Positions 1 to 13,912 of a stretch of DNA of 13,912 nucleotides are shown one piece after another; position 1 is the stretch's first letter, and every line of letters begins with the position of its first letter. Location of the stretch: positions 1-13,912 of the forward strand of contig JBHLSH010000090.1 in NCBI GenBank assembly GCA_048881705.1, written 5' to 3'. The notes beneath the pieces were generated by a model that saw only the letters and a list, made by a program, of their open reading frames with translations, did not search any database and had not been told where the DNA came from. Both the position numbers and the translations under genes were made by a program. Source of the DNA: Candidatus Heimdallarchaeota archaeon. Lineage in GTDB: Archaea > Asgardarchaeota > Heimdallarchaeia > Hodarchaeales > Hodarchaeaceae.

Positions 1-342
1 GGGTAGTACAAAGATACCTCGACAAGCAGCATGGCCACAATACGATAGCTGGGGAACCACATTTATCTTGCGAAAGATAGCGGGATCATAGACGAGTAGT
101 ATCCATGCTTAGGGCATCTCATAATACCAGTTTTTTGTTGAATACCTGAATGTAGCCAAATATCTAAAGATATAACGAAATCACAAGGTGAGAGGGTGTA
201 AAATAATTTAAATAGGATGTTGATCATCTTTAAAATAATGATGCACCTGTATTGGGATCGAAAACAGGTTCCAACCGTATAACGGGTAAAAATCAATAAA
301 AAGGTGTCAGAAGTAGGAGATCTGAACCGTTTTTAAAAGGAC

Positions 343-350
343 TTTATAAA
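343..350 (+). promoter_or_regulatory. Candidate TATA box (TTTATAAA) for the 513-aa gene
   Basis: TTTATAAA at 343-350, preceded by purine-rich AAAAGGA (BRE-like), ~70 nt upstream of the GTG at 419. GGAGAG at 406-411 is an SD-like site 7 nt before the start. Confidence 0.45.
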
Positions 351-418
351 GCGACAAAAAGCTATTTATTATTCTGGCTCCGATTCAATGCTGTTAACAG
401 GAACCGGAGAGATGTGAG

Positions 419-1960
419 GTGGTGAAAACTCATGAATCCCTTAAGAAGTCCATTTCCACAGTTTTACAGCAGCTTTCTCTTCGTACCAGTAGTTATCCTC
501 ATTCGGAACAAAAAAGGCTGGATGAATTACTGGATTTAATCCGTCATTACGAAGAAGCGGACTTTAATAGAAAGAAATTAGTACTAAGGTTTGCTAAATA
601 TAATAAGGGGACTCTTCAGGATGAAGAGTACCTTGGGCTTCCATTCTTATGGTTTAGTGGTATCTATTCTCAAAATGCAAAAGTCTTGTTAGAACATTCC
701 AAGTTTCATGCAATATCATTCTATGAATTCTTGGCAAAGCATTTACGGGGAGCTTTTCGACTGGTTAATAACTTGGAACCACTGTCCTCGATATTATGGG
801 AAGATTTACAATACGAAGCCAATAAATTACTCCAATATCTCACCAAAAGAGATCTAGAGACTTTAAGGGTGGAATTTCGACTTTTGAAAGAGAAAGGAGT
901 AGTTGCCCTAAGCGCACGACGGCAAAGGGAATTCATTATGGATTATATTGAATTTTTCAGAGATGAAACACCATCCGCAGAACTAAAGCGGCTATTCTCA
1001 ATTCTAAACGGAAAATGGGTGCTACACTTTTTTCCTCCCGCATTTGACCTTAATCGTGTCTTCTTTGAACTTCAGATCGTCGATGCTATTTCCTTAAATG
1101 AAATAATAGATTTTACAAATTTCAAAAACACTACATTAGCAATGAGCGATATCTATAACACTCGTGAAGATCCAAAACGATATCTTGGATTTCTAATTGT
1201 TCCAACTAATTGTGTCACTGTGTTAAAAGCAAATCTAGTTAAATTCCGGGATAAGGGGAAAATAAAACTAGAAAAATTTTCTTCGGTATTAGATTATAGG
1301 AAAAATATATCCTTAAGACAATATCATTCCGAAAAAGGGTGGCTCAATACCAGTTCAACATATCTTCGCAAGCTAAAACGAATTATTTTATCAAGCGGAT
1401 CGGCTGAGCTAGAATATTCCACAAATAGTACTGGAGATGATTACTATATCCCAAATGCAATGGACACGAATTGGAATTATCGAGATCATCCCCTTCCTCA
1501 TCGGATAATTGAGCTAGTTTGTAGAATGACGAAAGAGTTCACATTTAGTGATTTACCCATTGGTTCAGATGATTTAAGGAATCCTAGTTCTCTAGCCATC
1601 GATGAATTAGGACTCTTAAAGCAATTATATTACAACAGAGTGGTCTATCCAGTTTTTATCCCCTGGCAAATTGTATATGAATTTTCACTAAACAATTTCT
1701 GCGTATATATCCCGAAAATCTCATTTTCTAACTTGAAAAAAATAGTAGAGATCATTCCATACAGTGAGGTGATATTCACCAAAGAGTTCAATTTCCTATT
1801 TGGGAGACTAACCCCTCGATTGGTTAATTGGATTCGATCAGATTTAGGCTGGGATGTCCATATGGTCAGTAGAACACACAAAAAGCCCATGGAATTTAAT
1901 TCTGACTGGTTTGACAAAAGATCATTGACCTGGGTGGTTCCAGAGGTATTATCCCAATAA
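419..1960 (+). CDS. Uncharacterised 513-aa soluble protein, possibly a tandem Lrp/AsnC-like (wHTH + ferredoxin-like) regulator
   Basis: Long ORF with GTG start and SD-like GGAGAG. Its C-terminus is conserved at protein level in the paralog remnant at 2135-2391, which shows it is coding. The fold guess rests only on weak resemblance (LTKRDLETL to the Lrp N-terminal helix; alternating beta/alpha segments), so the product is low confidence. Confidence 0.85.
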   Translation: MVKTHESLKKSISTVLQQLSLRTSSYPHSEQKRLDELLDLIRHYEEADFNRKKLVLRFAKYNKGTLQDEEYLGLPFLWFSGIYSQNAKVLLEHSKFHAISFYEFLAKHLRGAFRLVNNLEPLSSILWEDLQYEANKLLQYLTKRDLETLRVEFRLLKEKGVVALSARRQREFIMDYIEFFRDETPSAELKRLFSILNGKWVLHFFPPAFDLNRVFFELQIVDAISLNEIIDFTNFKNTTLAMSDIYNTREDPKRYLGFLIVPTNCVTVLKANLVKFRDKGKIKLEKFSSVLDYRKNISLRQYHSEKGWLNTSSTYLRKLKRIILSSGSAELEYSTNSTGDDYYIPNAMDTNWNYRDHPLPHRIIELVCRMTKEFTFSDLPIGSDDLRNPSSLAIDELGLLKQLYYNRVVYPVFIPWQIVYEFSLNNFCVYIPKISFSNLKKIVEIIPYSEVIFTKEFNFLFGRLTPRLVNWIRSDLGWDVHMVSRTHKKPMEFNSDWFDKRSLTWVVPEVLSQ

Positions 1961-1973
1961 GAAAAAAATAAAG
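1961..1973 (-). terminator. T-rich terminator-like tract downstream of micro-ORF 1
   Basis: The minus strand reads CTTTATTTTTTTC about 25 nt after the micro-ORF stop. Oligo-T tracts are established archaeal termination signals. Confidence 0.45.
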
Positions 1974-1996
1974 GGGGTAGTTATTCACAATTCCTT

Positions 1997-2032
1997 TCAC
2001 ATTCCGCCATTTCCGCCGTCTTGAGGGGGCAT
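1997..2032 (-). CDS. Micro-ORF 1, 11-aa peptide MPPQDGGNGGM
   Basis: ATG CCC CCT CAA GAC GGC GGA AAT GGC GGA ATG TGA. AGGTGA lies 6 nt upstream of the ATG. A near-identical second copy is at 2428-2463. Confidence 0.65.
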   Translation of the reverse strand: MPPQDGGNGGM

Positions 2033-2037
2033 TGATT

Positions 2038-2074
2038 CTCACCTAATATCGTGTGGATAGGATAGTTATTAAAA
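2038..2074 (-). promoter_or_regulatory. SD (AGGTGAG, 2044-2038) and candidate TATA (TTTTAATAA, 2074-2066) for micro-ORF 1
   Basis: The SD matches the archaeal GGAGGTGA-type consensus. The TATA position would give a short leader just covering the SD. Confidence 0.5.
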
Positions 2075-2111
2075 CTCCCAACTTTCGTTGTTTCGACGGT
2101 CAATTTGCGTC

Positions 2112-2391
2112 ATTTTCAACCATCTCTCCCCTATGTATGGTTACCCAAAAATTACTTTTATAACTTGAAAGAACTTATCAAAATGATTCCGTATAGTGAG
2201 GTGTTTTTCACCGAAGCATTTATCTGTTTACTTGGGAGATTAACTCCACAACTAGTTACTTGGATGCGTTCAGACTTAGATTGGGATGTCCATATGATCG
2301 GTAGAGGGCGTAAAAACCTATCGAACTTAATCCAGACTGGTTTAACAAGAGATTGTTGTCCTGGGTAGTTCCAGAGGTCTTGATCTCGTAA
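2112..2391 (+). pseudogene. 5'-truncated, frameshifted paralog of the C-terminus of the 513-aa gene
   Basis: 2135-2391 aligns to 1703-1960 with about 51-52 of 85 residues identical by manual count (IPYSEV, GRLTP, WDVHM, DWF.KR, WVVPEVL). There is a 1-nt deletion at ~2317-2319, the stop codon is equivalent (TAA 2389-2391), and the 5' ~420 codons are absent. Confidence 0.9.
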
Positions 2392-2408
2392 GAAAAAATA
2401 AAAGAAAG
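2392..2408 (-). terminator. T-rich terminator-like tract downstream of micro-ORF 2
   Basis: The minus strand reads CTTTCTTTTATTTTTTC, at the position equivalent to the tract in copy 1. Confidence 0.45.
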
Positions 2409-2427
2409 GGATTCTTGACGGTTCTTC

Positions 2428-2466
2428 TCAGTGTCCGCCATTTCCGCCGTCTTGTGGGGGCATCAT
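2428..2466 (-). CDS. Micro-ORF 2, peptide (M)MPPQDGGNGGH (11-12 aa)
   Basis: ATG ATG CCC CCA CAA GAC GGC GGA AAT GGC GGA CAC TGA. GAGGTGAGGT lies at 2480-2471, and the TGA is at the same codon position as in copy 1. Confidence 0.65.
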   Translation of the reverse strand: MMPPQDGGNGGH

Positions 2467-2470
2467 TTTA

Positions 2471-2480
2471 ACCTCACCTC
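2471..2480 (-). promoter_or_regulatory. Strong SD (GAGGTGAGGT) for micro-ORF 2
   Basis: GAGGTGA is 7 nt from the ATG at 2466, and GAGGT is 7 nt from the ATG at 2463. AT-rich TATA-like tracts lie upstream (2497-2506, 2518-2526). Confidence 0.55.
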
Positions 2481-3022
2481 TTCGATACATTTGGAGTATA
2501 ATAATATCCCAAAATATTGATTAAAACTAAATGCGGACATGCTTGAGCGTCTTTTTAATACTGGGCCATTCCAGAGGTTCTGTCATAAATGCAAACAAAG
2601 GCTATGGAATATCACTGACACTTCTTTTTCGTGCCCCATTTAACCGTCCTATCGAAGTACCATCTTATTCGCGCCCCTTTCCCATGTTCACGGTTGTTGA
2701 AAACCTAAAAACCAGATTGGTAAACAACCTTATTCATATAGGGCTGTACGGATCAGATCCATTACTTGCCATTTAATGAATGAACTCTCCTCAGTTGATT
2801 CGCCAAAATTATCACGAAAATCCTGAATCTTTCCTTATGTGCTCCAGAAATGGGGACAAAAATCTTGCGTTTGTGCATCCGTTAAACATGGGATAGTTTG
2901 TCAAAAAATGTAAGTAAGAAGGAGGTCTGGATAATACCAAGATCATCCATACGAGTTACTGTGATTAGATCTCCAAACAACAGACTTGAATCATCGAAAA
3001 AAATCAAAACCCATTACCTGAA

Positions 3023-3379
3023 ATGACTGTTGTTCTGAGAAACATGGCGTCCATAATTGCAAAGTGGCAGAAATGTGGAAAATCTACGTGTCGCTGCAAA
3101 TCGGGGGCACTGCATGGGCCCTACTTTTGGTTAATCACGTACGTGTCCAGAAAGGCAGAACATCCGCAAAAGGGGCGGTACAGCTGGAAATACCTGGGCA
3201 AACATCCTGAAACCGCGTGGATCCGACTTAAAGAAATCGATGAGCGTTTCGATCAACAATATGATCTACAGGATCTAAAGAACAAAATAACGGATATGAT
3301 ACAGATCCGAAAAATTCAAAGAGATATTTCGGTTACTGAACCGGTTTTGGTTGTGGATGATCCGCGTTTGGACCATTGA
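3023..3379 (+). CDS. DUF6788-like small basic protein with Cys/His (probable Zn-binding) motif
   Basis: KCGKSTCRCKSGALHGPYFWL matches the CG-x3-C-x-C...HGPY signature as I recall it for DUF6788. An HMM check is needed. Confidence 0.75.
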   Translation: MTVVLRNMASIIAKWQKCGKSTCRCKSGALHGPYFWLITYVSRKAEHPQKGRYSWKYLGKHPETAWIRLKEIDERFDQQYDLQDLKNKITDMIQIRKIQRDISVTEPVLVVDDPRLDH

Positions 3380-3482
3380 ACATTAGGGCTTATTTTGGCC
3401 GCTATACGATGCGTACATGCCAGAATGGCGCGAATTTTCTGGGGGACCCCGACGAAATAATACCATGGTGTGTTAATGATTC

Positions 3483-3505
3483 TTATATGTACAGTGGAAA
3501 TAGAG
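3483..3505 (+). promoter_or_regulatory. TATA-like box (TTATAT) abutting an ORB-like site (TACAGTGGAAATAGAG) upstream of cdc6
   Basis: CAGTGGAAA matches the core of the Pyrococcus-type ORB (TTCCAGTGGAAA). It lies 60-75 nt upstream of the cdc6 ATG, and SD-like GAGG is at 3555-3558. Confidence 0.5.
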
Positions 3506-3565
3506 CCATTGCGAATGGAACCCGTGGATCGGGTAGCCTTCAACGGTCGGTTATGAGGAATTCAA

Positions 3566-4822
3566 ATGGCACAATTAGACCGCACGTCAGGGGATAGAAA
3601 TCGTGAAGAAGAGGAGGTCACTTTAGACGATATTTTTGAAGGATATTTGAAGCAACCAAAGCTGTTCACCAACCGCGATGCGCTTGAGAGTTCGTTTGTT
3701 CCAGAAAACTTACCCCACCGGACTGAACAAATCAAGCAGCTCGGATATATCCTAGCATCAGTGCTTCGTGGGGCCAAACCGAGCAATATCTTGTGTTTTG
3801 GGAAAACGGGAACAGGAAAAACGGCTGTCTCTAAATATGTCTTGAATACCTTGGGGAAAAAGGCACCACAGCATGGCCTGAAAATTGAAGTAGCATATAT
3901 GAACTGTAATTCCGTCGATACCAATTATCGGGTTTTCGCAGATTTATGCAGCTCCTTGGGGATTGAGGTACCGTTTACCGGGCTTGCCACAGATGAAGTA
4001 TTTACACGGTTCAAACGGGGATTAGATCAGCGGAATTCATTGTTTATTGTCGTTCTTGACGAAATCGATTCATTAGTGAAAAAATCAGGGAATGAAACCC
4101 TTTACAATCTGACTCGTATTAATACTGATCTCACCAGAGCTAAAGTGAGTCTAATTGGGATCTCGAATGACCTTAAGTTTAAAGAATACCTAGATCCTAG
4201 GGTTCTTTCCTCGTTGTCGGAGGAGGAGATTGTTTTCAAGCCTTATGAGGCACCTGAAATCATGGATATTCTGATTGACCGTGCAAGGCTGGCGTTCAAA
4301 GAAAATGTCCTATTGGAAGGGGTCCTCAATATGATTGCCGCGATAGCGGCCCAGGAGCACGGTGACGCACGTCGGGCTATTGATTTGTTACGAGTATCTG
4401 CTGAAACTGCGGAACGGGAAGGCAGTGAACAAATACTTCAAAGACATGTCAAGATCGCCCAGGGGGCCATAGAGAGGAACACGATCACGGAAGTGTGTGC
4501 ATCTCTGCCGCTTCAATCTAAGATAGTTATCTCTTCGATTTATCTCTTAGAAAGCACACAGGAAACATCTCAAACGGTATCCACTGGCGATGCTTATGAC
4601 GAATATGTCCGTTTGTGTCGTGAAATGGGAATGGATTCCCTAACACAACGTCGTGTAGGGGATCTCATTAATGAGCTTGATGCCCTGGGCATAATTAGTG
4701 CCCGAGTGGTTTCACGTGGACGTCATGGACGGACAAAAGAGATACGTATTTCAGTCCCCCGCCCGTTGGTGGCAAAAATTTTACGAGAAGACAAAATCAT
4801 CGGAAATAAGTTAACGAACTAG
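3566..4822 (+). CDS. cdc6: Orc1/Cdc6 replication initiator
   Basis: Walker A GKTGTGKT, Walker B VVLDEID, sensor ISND, GDARRAIDLL, and a C-terminal wHTH (RRVGDLINELDALGII...GRHGRTKEI). Confidence 0.97.
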   Translation: MAQLDRTSGDRNREEEEVTLDDIFEGYLKQPKLFTNRDALESSFVPENLPHRTEQIKQLGYILASVLRGAKPSNILCFGKTGTGKTAVSKYVLNTLGKKAPQHGLKIEVAYMNCNSVDTNYRVFADLCSSLGIEVPFTGLATDEVFTRFKRGLDQRNSLFIVVLDEIDSLVKKSGNETLYNLTRINTDLTRAKVSLIGISNDLKFKEYLDPRVLSSLSEEEIVFKPYEAPEIMDILIDRARLAFKENVLLEGVLNMIAAIAAQEHGDARRAIDLLRVSAETAEREGSEQILQRHVKIAQGAIERNTITEVCASLPLQSKIVISSIYLLESTQETSQTVSTGDAYDEYVRLCREMGMDSLTQRRVGDLINELDALGIISARVVSRGRHGRTKEIRISVPRPLVAKILREDKIIGNKLTN

Positions 4823-4876
4823 CTTCTGATTTCAATAATTGGATTAAATCCATTTGGGAGAGAGCAGGTCTCACCA

Positions 4877-6448
4877 TTAGGAGGGAATTATCTGCATTTT
4901 TCTGAGATCAATCGTGGCAATTTGACCAGTATGGATATCCAAAATATGGACAACCCCCACCGATGTTTTCTGCGAGATTTTCAAATGATCTGGGCCTTTG
5001 CCTTGAAATGTACCACAAGCGATTATTTTCACTCCTTTGTACTCGGCCACAGATGCTTGATGGCTGTGCCCGACGACAAGTACTTCTGGAACTCGATCAA
5101 TGACAAGATAGTCCCGTTTTGCAGGTACAAGCGGAATGGTGACTCCATACTCTGGAGCTAAATGCCGATATTCCAATAATTGTTGAATGCTCGAAATAGG
5201 ATTAATCGGGTCGAGCTGTTCGATCCCTTGCCCGTGATAGACTAGAAGGTTTAAACCATCGATTGTTACCCGAAGTGGGTTGCCATGAGGTAATACGTTC
5301 GGAAGGGAAAAAATCGAATTTCCTATTTCTCGATCAATAGCAGGCTGGGGTAAGGCTATTTGGGTGGCATCATGCTCCCCTGGGATTACTATTATCTGAA
5401 TGTAAGAAGGAATTTTAGAGAATAGACCTGATAAACCATCATATTGAGCTTGAAGTGAAGATACACTTAAATTTGCTTGCTGGTCAGGAAATTGTCCAAC
5501 GCCATCGCAAAGATCTCCAGCAACAATAACAACTTTGATATCTTGGGCTAGGGAAGCCAGATTAGGAGGTAGGTCATCTAATTGAACCAATTTTAGTAGA
5601 TTTGCAAAAGCCCTTGTGGCGAAGGATTTTGCGCCAAAATGGATATCTGCAAGAAAAAGTATTTTTCCAGAGCGGGGATTTGGTTGAAATCGGATAGGAG
5701 TGAGACTAGGCCGAATAACATCTTTTCCCCAAAAGGCAGTAATAGCTCCCTCCTCGTATTTCTTAGGTAGATCTCCTTCAACCCCGATCACAGTATCACG
5801 GAGAATTTCGTGATACCCTGAAAAGGATGTACTTTCTTGAACCATGACACATCGAGTAAGCATTTCATCATTAGGGTCTTCTAACTGGATGACAAACTTC
5901 CCGGTATGTAGGACCCCGGTATCTTGCACCATTCCAATCAATATTCCGCTTTTGTCAAGAGGAACTTCCTCTATCGTCAGGTTTCGGCCAAGAACCAGTC
6001 CTTGATCTGGTAGTTGATCCCTTATGATTCTTGAGAGTCGCTGAAACCTGTCAAGAAACAGATCCCGAAACGTGTCAACTTCAACAGGATCAGAAGGGGA
6101 AGTCGGGATATCAAGGTCAATAACAATTTCGGGCAGAGATGGGGGTTGTTTTGGGGTAGAGATGTGAGATTTTTGTTGTGTAGAAATTTGGTCTGAGTTA
6201 CGGATTGATATAGAATCGTTCGTAGAAGGCATTTCAAGACCTTTCGATATCTCAGGACGGTGTTGAGTTGACATCAGGGCCTCCTGAATGACAGGGACAG
6301 TTACAACGGGGACTTCTTGAGGTAATTGGGAAACAAGAGTATTCATTTGGCTTTTGGAGAGCGAAATGTTTCTTAGATAATCCAGAACCTCACCTGTGAC
6401 ATTAAACCCATGTTTCAAGAACAGAGCGATTAGTTCAGCTCGATCCAT
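4877..6448 (-). CDS. polB: DNA polymerase D small (proofreading exonuclease) subunit DP1
   Basis: N-terminal helical domain, OB-fold region, and calcineurin-like phosphoesterase motifs ADIHFG, GDLCDG, PGEHD, YHG, RHLAPEYG and GHSH. It is adjacent to cdc6. Confidence 0.92.
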   Translation of the reverse strand: MDRAELIALFLKHGFNVTGEVLDYLRNISLSKSQMNTLVSQLPQEVPVVTVPVIQEALMSTQHRPEISKGLEMPSTNDSISIRNSDQISTQQKSHISTPKQPPSLPEIVIDLDIPTSPSDPVEVDTFRDLFLDRFQRLSRIIRDQLPDQGLVLGRNLTIEEVPLDKSGILIGMVQDTGVLHTGKFVIQLEDPNDEMLTRCVMVQESTSFSGYHEILRDTVIGVEGDLPKKYEEGAITAFWGKDVIRPSLTPIRFQPNPRSGKILFLADIHFGAKSFATRAFANLLKLVQLDDLPPNLASLAQDIKVVIVAGDLCDGVGQFPDQQANLSVSSLQAQYDGLSGLFSKIPSYIQIIVIPGEHDATQIALPQPAIDREIGNSIFSLPNVLPHGNPLRVTIDGLNLLVYHGQGIEQLDPINPISSIQQLLEYRHLAPEYGVTIPLVPAKRDYLVIDRVPEVLVVGHSHQASVAEYKGVKIIACGTFQGKGPDHLKISQKTSVGVVHILDIHTGQIATIDLRKMQIIPS

Positions 6449-6619
6449 ACCGCTGACAAACCTAACTTTCTGATGGCAAACCTATCCCACGTACCTGACC
6501 CGTAGTTCCTTTTATTATTTTTCTCCATGATAGGCACGTCCCTCACTTAGAAGGCAGTCAGAGCATGGTCTCGCTCCTAAATCCTTAAAACGGCCGTAAT
6601 TTACATGGGATAAGAAGGA

Positions 6620-8785
6620 TTATGGAGCAATGGCACCTGGTGGAATACTATCCCACTTAATTCTCCAGATATAAACCCAGTCATGAGAGGTTTTATACGC
6701 CAGTTCATAATAGTCGGCATATTCCGCGTAATCTGGGGAAAACCCTTTTTCCGCGGGGGCATTATCTGAAATGGGGGCATAGCTGGTGATTCGATCATAG
6801 GTGGCCTGTTCGACTTCAGCGGTGTACAATGACCAAAAGACCGAGTCATAGAATTTGTTGACGTATCCTTCGATGAACTGCCCTCTGTCATCATAGTCTA
6901 GGTACTCATCTTCCACAATTTGGACAATATTACCATTTTTTTCACCAATCTTTACAAACCAAGGAACTTTTCCAAGATCTGAATCCAAACCTTGGGCTCC
7001 GAACCCATCCGAGACCAACAGAACGATATATGAGATATCATAAATCTTGGCGATCTTGAGACTTTCACGAGGGTTCAAAACTAACATACAGCCGATATTG
7101 GCAATCTTGGTACTATTTATGGTCGCATTATCCACTAGGATCGTCGTATTCGAGGTTCCACTGATCCAATACCCGTAATCCCACCAGGACGCCACAGTAC
7201 CATCATTAATGGTGACGTGATAATCGAGCCACCCGATGGCTTCTTGCCAATCATTTCCTATGATCAATCTATTCTCTTCTACAACAAGAGTGAGAATCGA
7301 AGGTGCATGAGTACTTTGGACCGCGGCATCGCTAGCCAGCATCACCGAGGAGAGTAGAAAGAGGCCGATAAAGGCAAAGGCGATGGCCGTATGCTCATTG
7401 GTCAGAGGTTGGCTGATTCGGGTCTTTCGCCGAGAGAGGGCAAACCGTTCCTGAAAAGTGAGTACAAAGGGGAGTAGGGTTTGATCTACTCCTTTTGCTA
7501 TGAGCAGAGCCGCCGCTGGGGCCAAAATAAGAGCCAGTCGTACCATGCTTCCCGCAAAAAAGATCGCCGTACCCCCAAAAAGTAACAACAAGATATTCTT
7601 CTCAGTTGGCTGTTCCCATAGATAATACAGACTAAGAGGTAAGAAAACAATAAGAATGCCGATATTATTGAAAAACGCCAGCCAAGTGACAAGTTGATGC
7701 TCCGAAACGGATTTGAGAATCGGGGTTTCATCTCGAAAGAACGGAAGTATGACCGTGATAAACTTGGAAGAAAAATTGGTCAGAAAACCAGTCAACATGA
7801 GAATGATGATTCCGATCCCAGTAAGGATAATCAAATATGGAAAGAGAGGGCGGATCCGATCATAAACTAAAGAAGTATCATAGTATTCGCCAATATAGTT
7901 CCATAACGCCACTAAGATAAGGAAGCCCACAACCCCGAGCGGCACCAAGCCATTTGTGGATAAGAGTGATGCGGGTCCATTACGGGGGATAAGGGTCATG
8001 ATGAATGATCCAATGAGGATGGAGCCAGAATATGATATCAGCAGGCGATCCGAGTATTTCTTGGAAAGGACAAGCAGAAAGGCATAAAGAGCCAATAAAT
8101 TGAAAACATATGTAGAGGCCCCCCAAGAACCTGATATTATTCCCAGTGAAATACCCGATAAAACCGTGGTAAATATGGATCCTGTTCGTAATGCTCGGGC
8201 GAAAAAATACAAACAAACAACTAGTAAGAGGATTCCTAAGCCTTCATTGTCAAAAAAACCAACAACAGTGCGTTGAAGATGGCCTGCGGACACAGCCAAC
8301 AACAATGCAGACAGAATCCCGACTTTTTTGTTGGCTAGCTCCTTTCCTAAAAAGTAAATTGCGATGACGGTTAAAGACCCGGTAATGGCTGGTTGAAAAT
8401 AGGCAGCAACCTGTAACGGAACATCAATTCCTAAAATGAGCGCTAATTCGTGAAGGAGGACAGCCGAGAGGGGCGTGCCAATATACTGAGATTTTCCCCA
8501 GAAACGGCCTTCAGGATACCAAGTCTGGTAATCCACCCAGGAAAAAAAGGCGAACAATCCGTTTTCAGAGATGTACTCGGCCGCCCGTAACTGAGAGTAG
8601 GGATCATTGGCAGAAAGGATCACCTCATACCGAAAAAAAGGGAAAATTCGCACTATGAAAGCTATCACAAAGATGAGAACCAGAGAGGAGTAGAGAAGGA
8701 TATGCTGCCTGGTAAGGGTTGTTGTTGCAAAATTATACCGAGTTCTGAGGTCATCAGTAATTCTAGATGTAAGACTAGGCGACAA
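6620..8785 (-). CDS. aglB: Oligosaccharyltransferase AglB/STT3
   Basis: Multiple transmembrane segments; motifs NDPY, FFDNE, SVSEHQ, WWDYG, DNAT and DLGK. TTG start with GGTGA 6 nt upstream. Confidence 0.96.
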   Translation of the reverse strand: MSPSLTSRITDDLRTRYNFATTTLTRQHILLYSSLVLIFVIAFIVRIFPFFRYEVILSANDPYSQLRAAEYISENGLFAFFSWVDYQTWYPEGRFWGKSQYIGTPLSAVLLHELALILGIDVPLQVAAYFQPAITGSLTVIAIYFLGKELANKKVGILSALLLAVSAGHLQRTVVGFFDNEGLGILLLVVCLYFFARALRTGSIFTTVLSGISLGIISGSWGASTYVFNLLALYAFLLVLSKKYSDRLLISYSGSILIGSFIMTLIPRNGPASLLSTNGLVPLGVVGFLILVALWNYIGEYYDTSLVYDRIRPLFPYLIILTGIGIIILMLTGFLTNFSSKFITVILPFFRDETPILKSVSEHQLVTWLAFFNNIGILIVFLPLSLYYLWEQPTEKNILLLLFGGTAIFFAGSMVRLALILAPAAALLIAKGVDQTLLPFVLTFQERFALSRRKTRISQPLTNEHTAIAFAFIGLFLLSSVMLASDAAVQSTHAPSILTLVVEENRLIIGNDWQEAIGWLDYHVTINDGTVASWWDYGYWISGTSNTTILVDNATINSTKIANIGCMLVLNPRESLKIAKIYDISYIVLLVSDGFGAQGLDSDLGKVPWFVKIGEKNGNIVQIVEDEYLDYDDRGQFIEGYVNKFYDSVFWSLYTAEVEQATYDRITSYAPISDNAPAEKGFSPDYAEYADYYELAYKTSHDWVYIWRIKWDSIPPGAIAP

Positions 8786-8993
8786 AAGGCTTCACCGAAA
8801 TAGATCTAAACGGGTACCCTCGGATTTTATGGAATAGTGGATTTCCTAACAAGGATAACGAAACGCTTGATGAATGGTCTACTTCTCCATTTTGTTTTTT
8901 GTTTTTTGCTGTTCGATGTTCTTTTAGATGGTTCTTTTTACACGATGTCAGGGTAGATTGAAAATCATTTACTAAATAAAAGCAGTTTTAAAG

Positions 8994-9353
8994 GTGCTAT
9001 TCGTGACGAAACCATCGATTGCCCCAGATATTGATCTAGAGTTGTTCGAACTAAAATTTCCTGGCAAAATTATAGGTAAAGCAGTCATAGATGCCAATGC
9101 CCAGATGATTGGGGTAATTCGTAATGTTAGAGTACAAATCGGATTAACATCAACCGCAACGAGCTTAACGATCAAGGGTTTGAATACTGAATTTGAAATA
9201 AAATCAGAAGATATCAAAGCAATCGGGAATGTCGTCAATTTAAATGTCACTATCAAGCACTCCGAACCTATAGAGGTACAAGATGTTATCCGCTTACGTA
9301 ACGAAATCCAAGAGGAGCTCCTCCACTTCTATCAGGTAATCCAGCCCCGATGA
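8994..9353 (+). CDS. PRC-barrel domain protein (CdpB-like) with C-terminal helical extension; true start probably GTG 9003
   Basis: IGKAVIDANAQMIGVIRNVRV ... SEDIKAIGNVVNL is a typical archaeal PRC-barrel pattern. AAGGTG (8991-8996) lies 6 nt before the in-frame GTG at 9003. Confidence 0.8.
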   Translation: MLFVTKPSIAPDIDLELFELKFPGKIIGKAVIDANAQMIGVIRNVRVQIGLTSTATSLTIKGLNTEFEIKSEDIKAIGNVVNLNVTIKHSEPIEVQDVIRLRNEIQEELLHFYQVIQPR

Positions 9354-9359
9354 CAAGGT

Positions 9360-9731
9360 TTATTGATCAAAATTGGCGATCTTTAATGTAATGTCTACTA
9401 TGGTGTCAATTGTCCGAAGAAGACGCTTGATTTCGTCCAAAGATTCCGTAGCAGCTAGCTGATGACTTAGGGCAAGGAGTTTTCCTACGAGAATGTCCTG
9501 CAACTGTTCAATTGTTTCACCAAGAGAATATCTATGCTCAATTTGCTTTGCTTCTATGTCTGATCTGGCAAAAACTGCTTCTCTATTGCATTTAGGGCAA
9601 AAAATCTTGTTTTCTTTCTTAAAGAGGGGAACATGACAGTCTGGACAGGAATCTGATAACATTGTTGCTCCTGTTAGAAGTAAAGAACTCATACGTGCAA
9701 TGGGATCTGATTCTGAGGGTTCTTTTGCCAT
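9360..9731 (-). CDS. UPF0148 / SSSCA1 (autoantigen p27)-type Zn-ribbon protein
   Basis: MSSLLLTGATMLSDSCPDCHVPLF...IFCPKC followed by a helical C-terminus. Confidence 0.88.
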   Translation of the reverse strand: MAKEPSESDPIARMSSLLLTGATMLSDSCPDCHVPLFKKENKIFCPKCNREAVFARSDIEAKQIEHRYSLGETIEQLQDILVGKLLALSHQLAATESLDEIKRLLRTIDTIVDITLKIANFDQ

Positions 9732-9804
9732 GATGGTAACCCGTTTTTACGTGATTCTTGCCAAATTCAGGTAGTAATATAATATTAGCCTACAATCCAT
9801 ACCA

Positions 9805-12402
9805 TTAGAATTTGATGATAGAGGAGATATGGTCGTTTGCTCCATAAATAATGGATTCGCGGTTGCTGAGAATAATTTTCTGGACATTGTGCATGGCCTT
9901 AAAATCATCGGCGAAGGCTGCGAGCGTAGGAGGAATACTTAGACTAGTGAGAGGGGCCTTAAAAGATAGCTTTTTGAGTTTTTTACTTCTCCAGATTAAA
10001 GAGTTAAGTTCCATGATTTTCGGAGTGCGAAAATCTTCTTCTGCAGAATTAGTCTCCGATTCTGGCATTAATTTTCTATGGATACTTTGAGAAGGTTCGT
10101 AAAGTTTTTGATAAATAGCTTCGGCTATAAACGGGGTGATGGGAGCGAGAAGTTTGAGAATGGTTTTGAAAACGTAGTGTATGGTGAAGTGGGCACTTTC
10201 AGTCGCCTCTTGGCCCGAAACGTCATCGCTATACGCACGAGTTTTCGCCAATTCTATATAATGGGCCGCAAAAATCGTTCGTACCCAATTGTAGATGTTT
10301 ATCGCTGGAACGGAAAAATCGAGTTGTTGATAACCTTTGTGACATCTATTGATAAGCCCATTTAAACTTGATAAAATCCATTCGTCTGTGGGGTATAATA
10401 TGGAGGGTTGGGTGCTATTGGGAAACACGGAGACAAATCGGGCGATATTCCAAAGTTTGGTGATAAATTTGGTATGACCGTTCAACTTGTCCAAAGAAAA
10501 TCGAATGTCGGTTCCATGGCTACCCTGTAAACATGATGAAAGCCTGACACTATCGGCGCCGCAGAAGAGATTCGGGAGTTTATTCTTATCCTTAAAGCGG
10601 TTGGAGATTTCCTTCTCAGCAATGTTTGTCCAGCTGTCTATTTCGGGTTTTAACGTTTCAGGAGTATTTAAAGGCAAATTAGGCGGTTGAATGAATACCA
10701 ATGGGTCTACACTGTTACCTAAACTTTTAGACATTTTCCCACCAAATGGATCAAGAACAAGGCCAGATATCCATACTTGCTTGAACGCTGATTTCTTAAA
10801 AAGAAGATAGGCGCGCAGAATAGTATAGTAAAGCCAAGTCCGTACGATTTCTTTCCCTTGGGGCCGTATCGAGCAGGGGAAATTCTGGGTGAAAAAAGAC
10901 TGATCAGGATCTTCAAAAAAGATCTCGCCATAATTGCATACTGCGAGTTCTGAGATTGAAGAATCGTACCAAGTGTCAAATGTTCTTTCCTCTCCTATGG
11001 CATCTACAAGCGTATTTCCACATTGAGAACACCGAGAAAGGCTAGCTGGGGGATTCTCTTTCCAAGCTTCATAATAACGATCGAGTACTTTCGGTACGTT
11101 TGGAAACTGACATTTCTGGCAATACCAAATTGGAATTGAAGTACCGTAAAACCGTCTTCTGCTTATCGCCCAGTCCATAGATAGATCTTTCATCCAGTTC
11201 TCTAGGATATTCTGACTAGATTGAGGATAGAAATGCATAAGCTCAGATATCTTTCTGAGCTCAGGAAGAAATTCTACCTGCTGGAGATAATATTCCTCTT
11301 GACCGATAATTTCTATCACTGTTTTGGATCTCCAACAGATAGGTACACGTCGAGAAATGGCTGACGATTTGATCAAGAAATCTGCTCTTTTCAGATCAGA
11401 TAGGATAGCTTCTTGTGCTTCTTTAACCGTTTTTCCTTGATACTTCCCTGCTACCGCATTTAATTTCCCATCAGTAGTAATAACGGTTTTGGGATGATTA
11501 ATGCCGAAATCTCGAAGGATTTTTACGTCTGATTTATCACCATACGCACAAATCATCATGATTCCAGTACCTAATCCAGGATCAGCTTCTGGATGAGAGA
11601 ATATGGGAACTGATTTGCTATATAGAGGTGTTAATGCCTGTTTTCCCTCCAGATGAACGTAGCGGAAATCATCGGGATGATAAATTATTAGTTCACAGGT
11701 TGCAATTAGTTCTGGTCGTGTCGTGGCAATTTTGATTGTTTCATCCGAATCAGCCAGATTAAACTTTATTTCATGAATTAATGAGTCATCGTTTCGGTAT
11801 TCGATTTCCGCATCAGCTATTGTCGTCCCACAGTCTATGCACCAATTATTTGGCCTGGTAGATCTATAAACTAATCCATCATGCCAAGCTTGAATAAAAG
11901 TACGTTGTGTTAGCACACGGTATTGTGGAGAGTCTGTCTGGTAATAAATGTTTGGGGTTCCGTAAAATGTGTTACAAGACAACCCCATCCACTTCATTAC
12001 TGCCAATGTGTTTTCTTCGGCCTCATCTAGCTCAATTTTACAGATTTTAAGGAATTCCACACGATCTATATCATGCATCGATTGACCTAGTTTACGTTCA
12101 ACTTTGACCTCCACAGGAAGGCCATTTCGATCAGTGCAGGCTGGAAATAACACTTCACACCCCATCATTCTGTAATAACGTGCGATCATGTCTATTTGTG
12201 CGTAGTGTATGGCAAAACCCAGATGGGCCCGGCCAGAAACATATGGAGGGGGAGTATCTATGATATAAACGGGTTTATTTGTCTTAGGATTGAACTGAAA
12301 GGTTGCATCCTTTTCCCAATAAGCAATAATGTCCCGCTCGATGTTCGGGTTCCAATTTTTCATATCTAGCTTTGGTTTACTTCTCATTGATTTTATCTCC
12401 AT
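9805..12402 (-). CDS. valS: Valyl-tRNA synthetase, archaeal type
   Basis: IDTPPPYVSG, HIGH variant HLGF, DRNGLPVE, editing domain ATTRPEL/GTG, W.ISRRR..G, DTW.DSS and KMSKSLGN. The C-terminus is short and lacks the bacterial coiled coil. Confidence 0.96.
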   Translation of the reverse strand: MEIKSMRSKPKLDMKNWNPNIERDIIAYWEKDATFQFNPKTNKPVYIIDTPPPYVSGRAHLGFAIHYAQIDMIARYYRMMGCEVLFPACTDRNGLPVEVKVERKLGQSMHDIDRVEFLKICKIELDEAEENTLAVMKWMGLSCNTFYGTPNIYYQTDSPQYRVLTQRTFIQAWHDGLVYRSTRPNNWCIDCGTTIADAEIEYRNDDSLIHEIKFNLADSDETIKIATTRPELIATCELIIYHPDDFRYVHLEGKQALTPLYSKSVPIFSHPEADPGLGTGIMMICAYGDKSDVKILRDFGINHPKTVITTDGKLNAVAGKYQGKTVKEAQEAILSDLKRADFLIKSSAISRRVPICWRSKTVIEIIGQEEYYLQQVEFLPELRKISELMHFYPQSSQNILENWMKDLSMDWAISRRRFYGTSIPIWYCQKCQFPNVPKVLDRYYEAWKENPPASLSRCSQCGNTLVDAIGEERTFDTWYDSSISELAVCNYGEIFFEDPDQSFFTQNFPCSIRPQGKEIVRTWLYYTILRAYLLFKKSAFKQVWISGLVLDPFGGKMSKSLGNSVDPLVFIQPPNLPLNTPETLKPEIDSWTNIAEKEISNRFKDKNKLPNLFCGADSVRLSSCLQGSHGTDIRFSLDKLNGHTKFITKLWNIARFVSVFPNSTQPSILYPTDEWILSSLNGLINRCHKGYQQLDFSVPAINIYNWVRTIFAAHYIELAKTRAYSDDVSGQEATESAHFTIHYVFKTILKLLAPITPFIAEAIYQKLYEPSQSIHRKLMPESETNSAEEDFRTPKIMELNSLIWRSKKLKKLSFKAPLTSLSIPPTLAAFADDFKAMHNVQKIILSNRESIIYGANDHISSIIKF

Positions 12403-12452
12403 AAGAACAGAGACCGTGACATAAAGTCCCCTTCAGAAGTCCTAAGGAAGAG

Positions 12453-12466
12453 AATTCAGCTGAATT
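12453..12466. promoter_or_regulatory. Perfect 14-bp palindrome AATTCAGCTGAATT in the valS / kinase divergent intergenic region
   Basis: The sequence equals its own reverse complement and lies 51 nt upstream of the valS ATG. Its function is inferred only. Confidence 0.4.
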
Positions 12467-12556
12467 AGGGGATAAAAAAATGTAGATAAGATTTTCCCCC
12501 GCCAAAAATCCATTCCATCTCTGTTGAGAGCTGTAAGAAAAGAGCGTTACGGGAAA

Positions 12557-12635
12557 TGGTGTTGTCTCATACGAGGCCAGGATTGAGGGATCTAACAAAG
12601 TGATCCCGGCTGGGAGACACCACTAATTCACCATT
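12557..12635. other. Potential multi-stem RNA hairpin in the valS / kinase intergenic region
   Basis: Nested pairs TGTCTC/GAGACA (12563-68/12614-19), CCAG/CTGG (12577-80/12610-13) and GGGATC/GATCCC (12587-92/12602-07). AATGGTG can also pair with CACCATT (12629-35). Confidence 0.4.
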
Positions 12636-12717
12636 CGTTTCTGAAAAACACAGCTTTAAAAAGCCGTCTATTTTTGATCGTCGTTGCTTGATGACAAGAT
12701 AAAAAGCTTCATATGGA

Positions 12718-13839
12718 TTGCGTGAGAATAAAGGTATGAGTCGAGATATTTTAGCAGAAGAACAACTTAAATTTGAAATAATACGCGTTCTTTCTCGTTA
12801 CTTCCTCCGTCAAATTGAAGATTTAGTTAGAACTAAAACAGGGGCTTTCTTTCCTGTAGAAAAAATCGAAAATATAGAACTGGGCCGAAGGCTTGGGAAA
12901 CGCAGGGAATTGCAGTTAGCGACACTCACGGTTCGAGATGCAATTTCTGATCGCCAATTCAGTTTCGAACTGGCCTTTAAATTCCATGCAAATCAAGATA
13001 CTGCCATTAAAGAGGGAAATGGTGCGTTATGGCTAGGAGATGTCCTAAAGAACAATTCTAAGGTGCACACACCTCAATTACTGTATTTATCTAGAGAAAG
13101 TTCTCTATTAATTTATGAGGGGGTTCAAGCAAAGGAATTCTATGACAGTGAGCTTGAAGAGCCCGAAAAACTGCTTTTGGCTGGCATGGCACTACCTTAT
13201 GTTCATGGTATTTTCAAACAGAGGGTGCAAGTGGATCGCTATCTCCATCTAATTTCAGGGGTAACCGCTGGTTTACGAATGTCTCCAGATGAGAAAACAG
13301 AGTTTAATTCTCTTTTTAAACCGTTTCTCCGCCATGTAGGCATCAGTGAAGCGGGAGGAAATTGTTTTGGCGATTTCCACCCTGGAAATATCATGTTTCA
13401 ACATGGCGGGGATATAAATGCATCTACCAGCAATACGGGGAATGTTCTGGTAGATCACACGGATATTTTTTTAATCGACCCAGCTTATTTAGATAACGAA
13501 GGAAACGTTGATAGAACTGAGGATATCGGAACTTTTTTTTCAAAAATTGCCTCGAATGAATGGTTATTGAACCAATCGTTTGACACCAGTATACGCCAAA
13601 TTGAGCAATTCGTTAAAGGTTACAATTACATCACCCAAATGAACGGTATGACGCTACAGGATTATTATGTAGACGGAAAACCTTCTTTTGATTTTCAAAT
13701 TGGGTTGGGGATTCTGCTTGATACCTTATATAAAATGAAAACACCTGGTGGAGATTTTGGAGCCAAAACGAGTACTAATGTTGAGGCGGCCAAACAGATT
13801 TTGACTCGGCAACCGTTTGAAGCAGTTGAACCTGTCTAG
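12718..13839 (+). CDS. APH/choline-kinase-like phosphotransferase (protein-kinase fold), substrate unknown
   Basis: LAFKF (catalytic Lys region), Brenner-type motif FGDFHPGNIMF, metal-binding FLIDP and downstream EDIG. The start is uncertain (TTG 12718 or ATG 12737). Confidence 0.85.
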   Translation: MRENKGMSRDILAEEQLKFEIIRVLSRYFLRQIEDLVRTKTGAFFPVEKIENIELGRRLGKRRELQLATLTVRDAISDRQFSFELAFKFHANQDTAIKEGNGALWLGDVLKNNSKVHTPQLLYLSRESSLLIYEGVQAKEFYDSELEEPEKLLLAGMALPYVHGIFKQRVQVDRYLHLISGVTAGLRMSPDEKTEFNSLFKPFLRHVGISEAGGNCFGDFHPGNIMFQHGGDINASTSNTGNVLVDHTDIFLIDPAYLDNEGNVDRTEDIGTFFSKIASNEWLLNQSFDTSIRQIEQFVKGYNYITQMNGMTLQDYYVDGKPSFDFQIGLGILLDTLYKMKTPGGDFGAKTSTNVEAAKQILTRQPFEAVEPV

Positions 13840-13912
13840 CCATATTTTTGTTATTTTCGACAGACTCTTAACAAAATATTAGAAGGACTGAGAATTTTCG
13901 CACTACCTGCCT

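Follow-up and report, generated by a model that had tools for sequence, protein, structure and literature searches.

Predicted micro-genes of 10–13 codons convergent to a regulator-like gene family in one genus of Asgard archaea

Described systems closest to the locus

The binding of a tiny peptide to a transcription factor has a precedent in the PatS–HetR pair of Anabaena/Nostoc (PMC4649674), in which PatS, a product of 13–17 amino acids, is encoded by a tiny stand-alone gene with its own promoter (PMC4649674, PMC7761841). The short, Gly-rich active motif of PatS, its lack of a signal sequence and its action on a DNA-binding regulator are reminiscent of what is proposed here for two minus-strand open reading frames (ORFs) of 11 or 12 codons, micro-ORF A and micro-ORF B, in a stretch of 13,912 nucleotides from Candidatus Heimdallarchaeota archaeon (GCA_048881705.1, contig JBHLSH010000090.1, positions 1 to 13,912; referred to throughout as the window), where A faces the 3' end of a plus-strand gene for a regulator-like protein of 513 amino acids, named P0001. 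The two systems differ in several respects: the RGSGR motif is absent from the present peptides, the fold of HetR is different from that of P0001, patS is not obligately adjacent to hetR, and PatS acts between the cells of a filament. The binding of PatS to HetR has also been solved, whereas here it would be putative.

Proline-codon leader peptides, such as those of Salmonella mgtP and mgtL, form a second group of interest. Alongside the PPW and MAGDIS upstream open reading frames (uORFs) of AZIN1 and AMD1, they resemble the present micro-gene in being frames of a few codons with hard-to-translate Pro-Pro or Gly/Asp motifs, in conserving the head and the length over the full sequence, and in their dependence on EF-P or eIF5A (PMC5499558), the last of which would apply to the micro-gene by analogy. 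All of these leaders lie upstream on the transcript of their target, in contrast to the micro-gene, which has its own promoter and terminator, is convergent to its neighbour and has no downstream cistron; the alternative RNA structures of attenuator-type leaders are likewise not found for the micro-gene.

In the Rgg/SHP and RRNPP pairs of Firmicutes, receptors of the tetratricopeptide repeat (TPR) type are combined with precursors of 20–45 amino acids that are exported, processed and re-imported. Here too the regulator gene adjoins a tiny peptide gene, often convergently, and one genome holds many paralogous pairs, every one of them with a peptide of its own. P0001 is, however, Lrp/AsnC-like by predicted fold rather than TPR-type, and the peptides in question would be of 10–13 hydrophilic residues, with no export machinery nearby.

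The best explanation of the two frames, to which we give a probability of roughly 0.45, would be a stand-alone, translated micro-gene that forms a two-gene module with the convergent regulator-like gene. No published description of such a module was found in the literature. Should the explanation hold, few known protein-coding genes that are conserved and stand alone would be shorter than the micro-gene, which belongs to the archaeal lineage nearest to eukaryotes. Genes of this size escape gene callers, yet these appear to possess a dedicated promoter and to be locked to a fast-evolving, multi-copy, regulator-like protein. The module is also small enough to be directly testable, since all it takes is a synthetic 11-mer, a single protein and an 18-bp motif.

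The predicted micro-gene and its partner family

The two frames, their accompanying signals and the plus-strand gene and gene fragment that they face are located in the window as follows (SD, Shine-Dalgarno sequence; PWM, position weight matrix).

1997–2032, minus strand: micro-ORF A, 11 codons plus TGA (ATG 2032–2030, TGA 1999–1997), predicted product MPPQDGGNGGM
2428–2466, minus strand: micro-ORF B, TGA 2430–2428, predicted product (M)MPPQDGGNGGH; 12 codons from ATG 2466–2464, 11 from ATG 2463–2461
2039–2044, minus strand: SD of micro-ORF A, AGGTGA, 6 nt 5' of the ATG
2471–2480, minus strand: SD of micro-ORF B, GAGGTGAGGT
1962–1968, minus strand: T7 run, terminator-like end of micro-gene A, 28 nt past the micro-ORF stop
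2393–2398, minus strand: T6 run, terminator-like end of micro-gene B, 29 nt past the micro-ORF stop
2065–2082, minus strand: promoter motif of micro-gene A, GTTGGGAGTTTTAATAAC, composed of a TATA box and, directly adjoining it, a G-rich element; PWM score 16.2
2496–2513, minus strand: promoter motif of micro-gene B, TTTGGGATATTATTATAC; PWM score 15.0
419–1960, plus strand: partner gene P0001, 513 amino acids, stop codon 1958–1960
2123–2391, plus strand: decayed copy of the partner gene, covering its last ~89 codons (residues ~425–513), stop 2389–2391

As an earlier, sequence-only reading of this DNA had noted, codons 1–10 of A and B are identical at 29 of 30 nucleotides, the sole change (CCT/CCA) being synonymous, the last residue is Met in one and His in the other, and each frame carries its own SD and T-rich end. 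A 20-nt core occurs twice in the window against zero expected, and the 30-mer of codons 1–10 has just two copies, and no inverted copy, in the 3.96-Mb source genome; the motif is absent from other genomes of the genus. Promoter motif A starts exactly 50 nt before its ATG and motif B 47 nt before the ATG at 2466. The stop-to-stop gap between micro-ORF and plus-strand gene or fragment is 36 nt at A and B alike, and at both the T-run lies 1 nt from the plus-strand stop codon, which belongs to the 513-residue gene at A and to the fragment at B.

The comparison was carried through 22 genomes of one Asgard genus (the source genome being G000 and the nearest genome G001, with L numbers for family loci), in which the 3' ends of 74 members of the P0001 family were surveyed together with 700 nt downstream; 71 of these loci were long enough to assess. 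In 54 loci there were 55 convergent ORFs of 9–13 codons beginning M-(x)-P-P, and two extra copies, one of 16 codons recovered by probing with the promoter motif and one just outside its retrieved stretch, gave a total of 56 among the 71 assessable loci (9–16 codons). Start codon, Pro-Pro, SD, length, stop and T-run are kept in these loci. The predicted micro-genes usually comprise 10–13 codons, with an ATG or GTG start and one optional residue ahead of Pro-Pro, a pattern into which A and B both fit; ATG-ATG ahead of Pro-Pro is the commonest form. Nucleotide identity across the family falls to 25–50% while start, Pro-Pro, frame length, stop, SD and codon periodicity stay. Stop-to-stop gaps range from 36 to 204 nt, with an outlier of 467 nt that represents copy B measured from the stop of gene A. 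At the orthologous locus of G001 (partner protein 73% identical), MPPNDGPTGGL is found at the aligned place, sharing with A the ATG position, the 11 codons, the TGA and the AGGTGA spacing, although 10 of 33 nucleotides differ; four of the seven changed codons are synonymous. SD, start and stop, which the sequence-only reading had singled out for comparison, are kept both across the family and in this orthologue.

Chance appears to account poorly for these frames. As a control in the source genome, 52 of 389 ATGCCNCCN frames (13%) stop after 9–12 codons, and about 2.5 such strings would be expected in the searched DNA as against 41 seen. The full signature (SD, M-(x)-PP, 9–14 codons, a tail rich in Gly, Pro and Asp, and a T-run) occurs four times in the 3.96-Mb genome, each time beside a family gene. 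The pattern GAGGT-N5-9-ATGATGCCNCCN has 15 matches in the genus compared with none in a reversed control, and in 61 other genomes of the class it has two, both of them hydrophobic chance ORFs. These results support the view that the two frames are real members of a tiny-gene family missed by gene callers, and that the micro-genes of this family are translated, as the sequence-only reading had suggested from the window. The tail is barely constrained in sequence, and the evidence for coding rests on the start, length, composition and periodicity.

In a profile of the family, with positions counted from the first base of the Pro-Pro codons, the parts of the micro-gene are arranged as follows.

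-19 to -14: SD, GAGGT(T)
-6 to -4: start, mostly ATG (G 0.91 at -4); a second ATG often comes next
+27 to +32: stop, TAA in 38/56
from about +53: T-rich run

A strong 3-nt periodicity is evident, with G at 0–5% of third positions in codons 2–9 and at 30–70% of first positions in the codons that come after Pro-Pro. The gap separating the stop of the micro-ORF from that of the partner contains a run of five or more T in 51 of 55 copies, at a distance from the micro-ORF stop of 35 nt in the median (range 1–89 nt). Upstream, 36 of 54 copies have the promoter motif TTTGGGWGnTTATAAAGG beginning 48–50 nt ahead of the start codon, 24 of them at exactly 50 nt, so that its TATA part lies ~38 nt before the ATG; taking the usual archaeal TATA-to-start distance as given, the leader would be of only ~11–12 nt. 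The motif was rejected as the general promoter form of the organism on the strength of its 46 genomic matches at 15 bits or above as against 70 in a reversed control, and as a site shared with the partner-gene promoter because just one of 33 partner upstream regions reaches 13 bits. The statement of the sequence-only reading that the upstream flanks of A and B are dissimilar therefore needs qualification, as both carry this family motif.

No conserved RNA structure was detected (median folding z -0.11), pairing of the SD with the post-stop tract is possible in only 13 of 54 copies, and Rfam returned no match; an SD/anti-SD hairpin enclosing the ORF was rejected on these grounds. The idea that the A-rich spacer between SD and ATG doubles as the oligo-T terminator of the partner was also not adopted, a plus-strand T5 run being present there in 11 of 55 copies. 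Nothing that could serve as a further cistron follows the micro-ORF and its T-run on the minus strand, only the antisense of the 513-residue gene. As judged from this comparison, the predicted micro-gene is a self-contained unit of promoter, short SD leader, 10–13 codons, stop and oligo-T terminator.

The comparison likewise places the predicted micro-gene exclusively with the P0001 family. The micro-ORF is convergent, i.e., tail-to-tail, to the partner gene in the 56 loci, as it is at A and B. The multi-copy P0001 family is present in all 21 other genomes of the genus and in none of 19 from other genera of the class, and its profile matches 10 of 10 genus genomes with a single marginal match among 190 other Asgard genomes; neither with this profile nor with the micro-ORF pattern was a module found outside the genus in the genomes searched. 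Intact micro-genes persist beside decayed partner fragments, as with copy B in the source genome and L088 in genome G005.

Searches of Pfam, NCBIfam and the PDB by sequence gave no match for P0001, nor did Pfam for any of 18 family members. An AlphaFold2 model built from the 18-member alignment was obtained with a predicted local distance difference test score (pLDDT) of 89.6 and a predicted template modelling score (pTM) of 0.87. Residues 143–513 of this model are matched by NirDL (4ch7), in which two Lrp/AsnC-like units are fused, at Z 13.0, the next entry reaching 6.7, and Foldseek gave E 6e-5; the single Lrp regulators 8q90, 2efn and 2p5v align end to end with residues ~141–302 at Z 5.5–5.8. 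The nearest ESM Atlas clusters hold proteins of Thorarchaeota, Bathyarchaeota and Heimdallarchaeota with HTH_24 or HTH_AsnC-type domains. The predicted fold of P0001 is a helical N-terminal domain of ~140 residues followed by two tandem Lrp/AsnC-like units, each composed of a winged helix-turn-helix (wHTH) and, after it, a RAM domain of beta-alpha-beta-beta-alpha-beta order, as in a doubled ligand-sensing, DNA-binding protein of this type, and it shares these two consecutive wHTH + RAM units with the NirDL/AhbAB siroheme decarboxylases. From both NirDL and the Lrp/AsnC (feast/famine) regulators it differs by the extra N-terminal helical domain and by the lack of sequence likeness. Membership in Lrp/AsnC at the level of sequence is not supported, for there is no Pfam match, no match to the HTH_24 or AsnC_trans_reg profiles, and a probability of 0.3% in hhalign against four genuine AsnC regulators of the source genome.

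The sequence-only reading missed both the partner gene at 419–1960 and the duplication to which A and B belong. The two micro-ORFs are the distal ends of a duplication of ~350 nt, in which plus-strand 1700–2032 aligns with 2100–2466 and which takes in the 3' end of the 513-residue gene and its frameshifted remnant. A DNA alignment of the copies extends over ~300 columns at 71% identity up to the micro-ORF, against which background the 29/30 match has P = 4e-4 per window, the runner-up 30-column window being 26/30. It had been claimed that the identity starts at the ATG; this is correct on the upstream side, but on the other side the similarity continues through the alignable ~300 columns. Two tblastn matches, 60% and 74% identical and lying in different frames, make up the fragment at 2123–2391, which is frameshifted near 2314. 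The stretch at 2561–2580, considered as a possible third remnant of P0001, showed no significant similarity and was dismissed.

Proposed function and competing explanations

In the tail after Pro-Pro, Gly makes up 28% (4.1x the proteome), Pro 19% (4.3x) and Asp 9.5% (1.8x), while hydrophobic residues are at 0.1–0.3x the proteome; Lys is the last residue in 17 of 56 peptides. Taken together with the sequence comparisons below, the tail is constrained in length and composition and barely in sequence. A tentative proposal, to which we would give somewhat worse than even odds, is that the product acts in trans as a short, unprocessed Pro/Gly-rich peptide working with the regulator-like protein. 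Such an 11-mer would be expected to keep its Met, given that a Pro in third place prevents Met removal. Action in trans is suggested by the own promoter and terminator, the lack of a following cistron and the intact copies beside decayed fragments. In such a scheme, the Lrp-fold protein would be the likeliest reader of the G-rich promoter element and the Pro/Gly peptide the likeliest small partner or feedback ligand of the regulator, while all paralogues would share the invariant Met-(x)-Pro-Pro head as their anchor and differ in the variable tail, which would be specific to each. If the peptide were indeed a ligand of the regulator, this would be the first archaeal regulator–micropeptide pair known to us and a new kind of Lrp/RAM ligand.

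Several observations weigh against the module as so conceived. Over 11 disjoint pairs of tails, the ratio of nonsynonymous to synonymous differences (pN/pS) is 0.78 and the differences by codon position number 25, 28 and 35; the bias towards third positions anticipated by the sequence-only reading is not seen here, and in this part its own case for a coding family is weakened. Gly and Pro interchange at tail positions 3–7, and such free interchange in a near-neutral tail would be odd for a specifically recognised ligand. Among three modules of genome G005, promoter and leader are 84–90% identical, as opposed to 25–54% for the tails and 29–40% (amino acids) for the C-termini of the regulators; the loci concerned are on contigs C314 and C9 (L019, L062, L088, L026) and C139 (L147), and the adjacent regulators are old paralogues. 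The likeness of these control regions indicates either a very strong constraint or concerted evolution, and the identities suggest an order of conservation in which promoter, leader and Met-(x)-Pro-Pro come first, the regulator next and the tail last. Moreover, 15 assessable family loci have no micro-gene within 700 nt, P0001 is assigned to Lrp/AsnC by its predicted fold only, and the idea that the regulator binds the promoter motif is purely conjectural. We also know of no Lrp/RAM protein that binds a peptide.

The chief competitor, unlikely on balance, holds that it is the act of translating Met-(x)-Pro-Pro with an Asp/Gly/Pro tail that matters and not the peptide, so that the micro-gene would be a translation-stalling sensor tuning the regulator in cis. 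Ribosomes would stall unless aIF5A (through its hypusine/polyamine state) or the supply of Pro/Gly-tRNA sufficed, and their occupancy would set the fate of the tiny mRNA, either by read-through of the T-run into the convergent gene or by pairing with the 3' untranslated region (3' UTR) of the latter. In yeast depleted of eIF5A, ribosomes pause at Pro, Gly, Asp, Lys/Arg, D-x-x with P/G, PG/GP and termination (PMC5499558), and the composition of the peptides, with their invariant Pro-Pro, matches these pause residues. The scheme would also accommodate the interchange of Gly and Pro in a tail whose sequence is near neutral, the placing of head, SD and leader among the most conserved parts and a peptide that is never longer than the exit tunnel. 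Genes for aIF5A and deoxyhypusine synthase are present in the source genome, the AZIN1 PPW and AMD1 MAGDIS uORFs are precedents in eukaryotes (PMC11900008), and the 3' UTR of the partner probably runs antisense across the micro-ORF, since no plus-strand T5 run separates partner stop and micro-ORF start in 40 of 55 loci. Set against this, there is no downstream cistron on the same strand, intact copies stand beside dead gene fragments where the target in cis is gone, the distance from stop to T-run is loose (1–89 nt), and neither a conserved RNA structure nor an SD/anti-SD switch was found (median z -0.11; 13/54); stalling would, furthermore, be argued from yeast and bacterial data and not from archaea. 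Every leader peptide or uORF known to us has a downstream cistron. If correct, a stalling sensor would tie gene control in Asgard archaea to elongation that depends on aIF5A.

In the most far-reaching reading, the genus would run several orthogonal, purely intracellular circuits of peptide and transcription factor, with synthesis gated by aIF5A, that report translation-elongation capacity to transcription. Each tandem Lrp-fold regulator would then have an unprocessed Pro/Gly peptide of 10–13 residues as its cognate ligand, aIF5A would gate synthesis of this peptide at Met-(x)-Pro-Pro and the Asp/Gly/Pro tail, and hypusine/polyamine or Pro/Gly supply would be sensed. We regard this as improbable; were it true, it would provide an archaeal counterpart, in the form of a separate gene, to the polyamine-sensing PPW and MAGDIS uORFs of eukaryotes.

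An exported signal or a precursor of a ribosomally synthesised and post-translationally modified peptide (RiPP), acting between cells in the manner of Rgg/SHP, RRNPP or the microcin C7 heptapeptide, would be compatible with a tiny gene that lies next to a regulator-like gene and faces it, and with paralogue-specific tails, and very short precursor genes do exist, MccA having only seven codons. The 10–13 hydrophilic residues of the products, however, include no hydrophobic segment and no signal segment, the latter as the sequence-only reading had already observed, and they could not accommodate both a leader and a core. Among the neighbours of the modules there is no recurrent transporter, peptidase or modifying enzyme and no known RiPP enzyme, nor had a modifying enzyme been visible in the window to that reading; the predicted fold of the partner is Lrp-like and neither TPR nor that of a known RiPP-class enzyme. 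The RiPP-like precursor that had been listed as an option fits poorly, as does an exported signal, and both are very improbable. Scarcely credible, finally, is a non-coding element, i.e., a DNA or RNA signal (a terminator, antisense RNA, mobile-element end or origin repeat) in which the frame would be incidental. That synonymous sites are kept too between the window copies (one change in 30 nt), that the stretch lies within the probable 3' UTR of the partner and that the window adjoins cdc6/orc1 and the gene for the PolD small subunit would all suit such an element. It would leave unexplained how start, Pro-Pro, length, stop, SD and periodicity persist at 25–50% nucleotide identity across the family, and it is opposed by the lack of RNA structure and Rfam match, by a 30-mer present twice in the genome without an inverted copy, by a partner that is not a transposase or nuclease by fold, and by the locations of the element in the genome, which go with the protein family and not with the origin. 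A mobile-element end had been entertained on account of the sharp break in identity at the margin of a repeat that takes in a gene 3' end; this idea, together with that of a TnpB omega-RNA-like 3' RNA (IS200/IS605-type), was rejected in view of the two 30-mer copies without an inverted one, the absence of the motif from other genomes of the genus and the Lrp-like rather than nuclease-like fold of the partner, the omega-RNA also lacking RNA structure and an Rfam match.

Variant loci and genomic surroundings

In two or three orthologous subfamilies (L061, L063, L071, L074–L077, L079 and others), the 700 nt downstream contain no M-(x)-PP ORF and no promoter motif, which could be a matter of loss, of relocation or of a different partner. 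At the orthologous loci L068 (G000:C88:13764, plus strand) and L073 (G001:C2), ORFs of nine codons, MPPEEPTSQ and MPPNEPTGQ, with the SD AAAGGAGGTC, are situated ~430 nt downstream in the gene's own orientation and without a dedicated promoter motif; they may be a rearranged variant of the module. A paralogue of the 513-residue gene in the source genome, L113 (C14:4773–6308), contains one in-frame TGA, which could be due to a pseudogene, a sequencing error or recoding, and its micro-gene is intact (MPPDEGPGSSK, at C14:4661, plus strand). Within the window, a minus-strand ORF of 14 codons at 2069–2113 (MTQIDRRNNESWEF) shares positions with promoter motif A; in G001 its opening codons are kept (MTQND...) and its length is not, and it is probably not a gene.

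The divergence of the window from G001 is mosaic. The region of a DUF6788 gene is 95% identical (window 2996–3481; L002 4051–4536), and window 1–2117, containing the regulator gene and micro-gene A, is 78% identical to L002 1083–3196. The ~880 nt of window 2118–2995, with the fragment and micro-gene B, have no counterpart in G001, a different stretch of ~850 nt being found there.

Genes beside the modules are heterogeneous and include those for a HerA-like ATPase, SatD, NosD, saccharopine dehydrogenase, an FGGY kinase and PadR; no common target operon was found among these neighbours. An origin recognition box (ORB) repeat beside cdc6/orc1 was considered for the repeated element and rejected, as the element is found together with the protein family on other contigs as well. 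Beyond the two micro-genes, the window carries Cdc6/Orc1 (3566–4822, plus strand), the PolD small subunit (4877–6448, minus strand), AglB/STT3 (6620–8785, minus strand) and valyl-tRNA synthetase (ValRS; 9805–12402, minus strand), and by this gene content 3566–12402 is likely to be a replication-origin neighbourhood.

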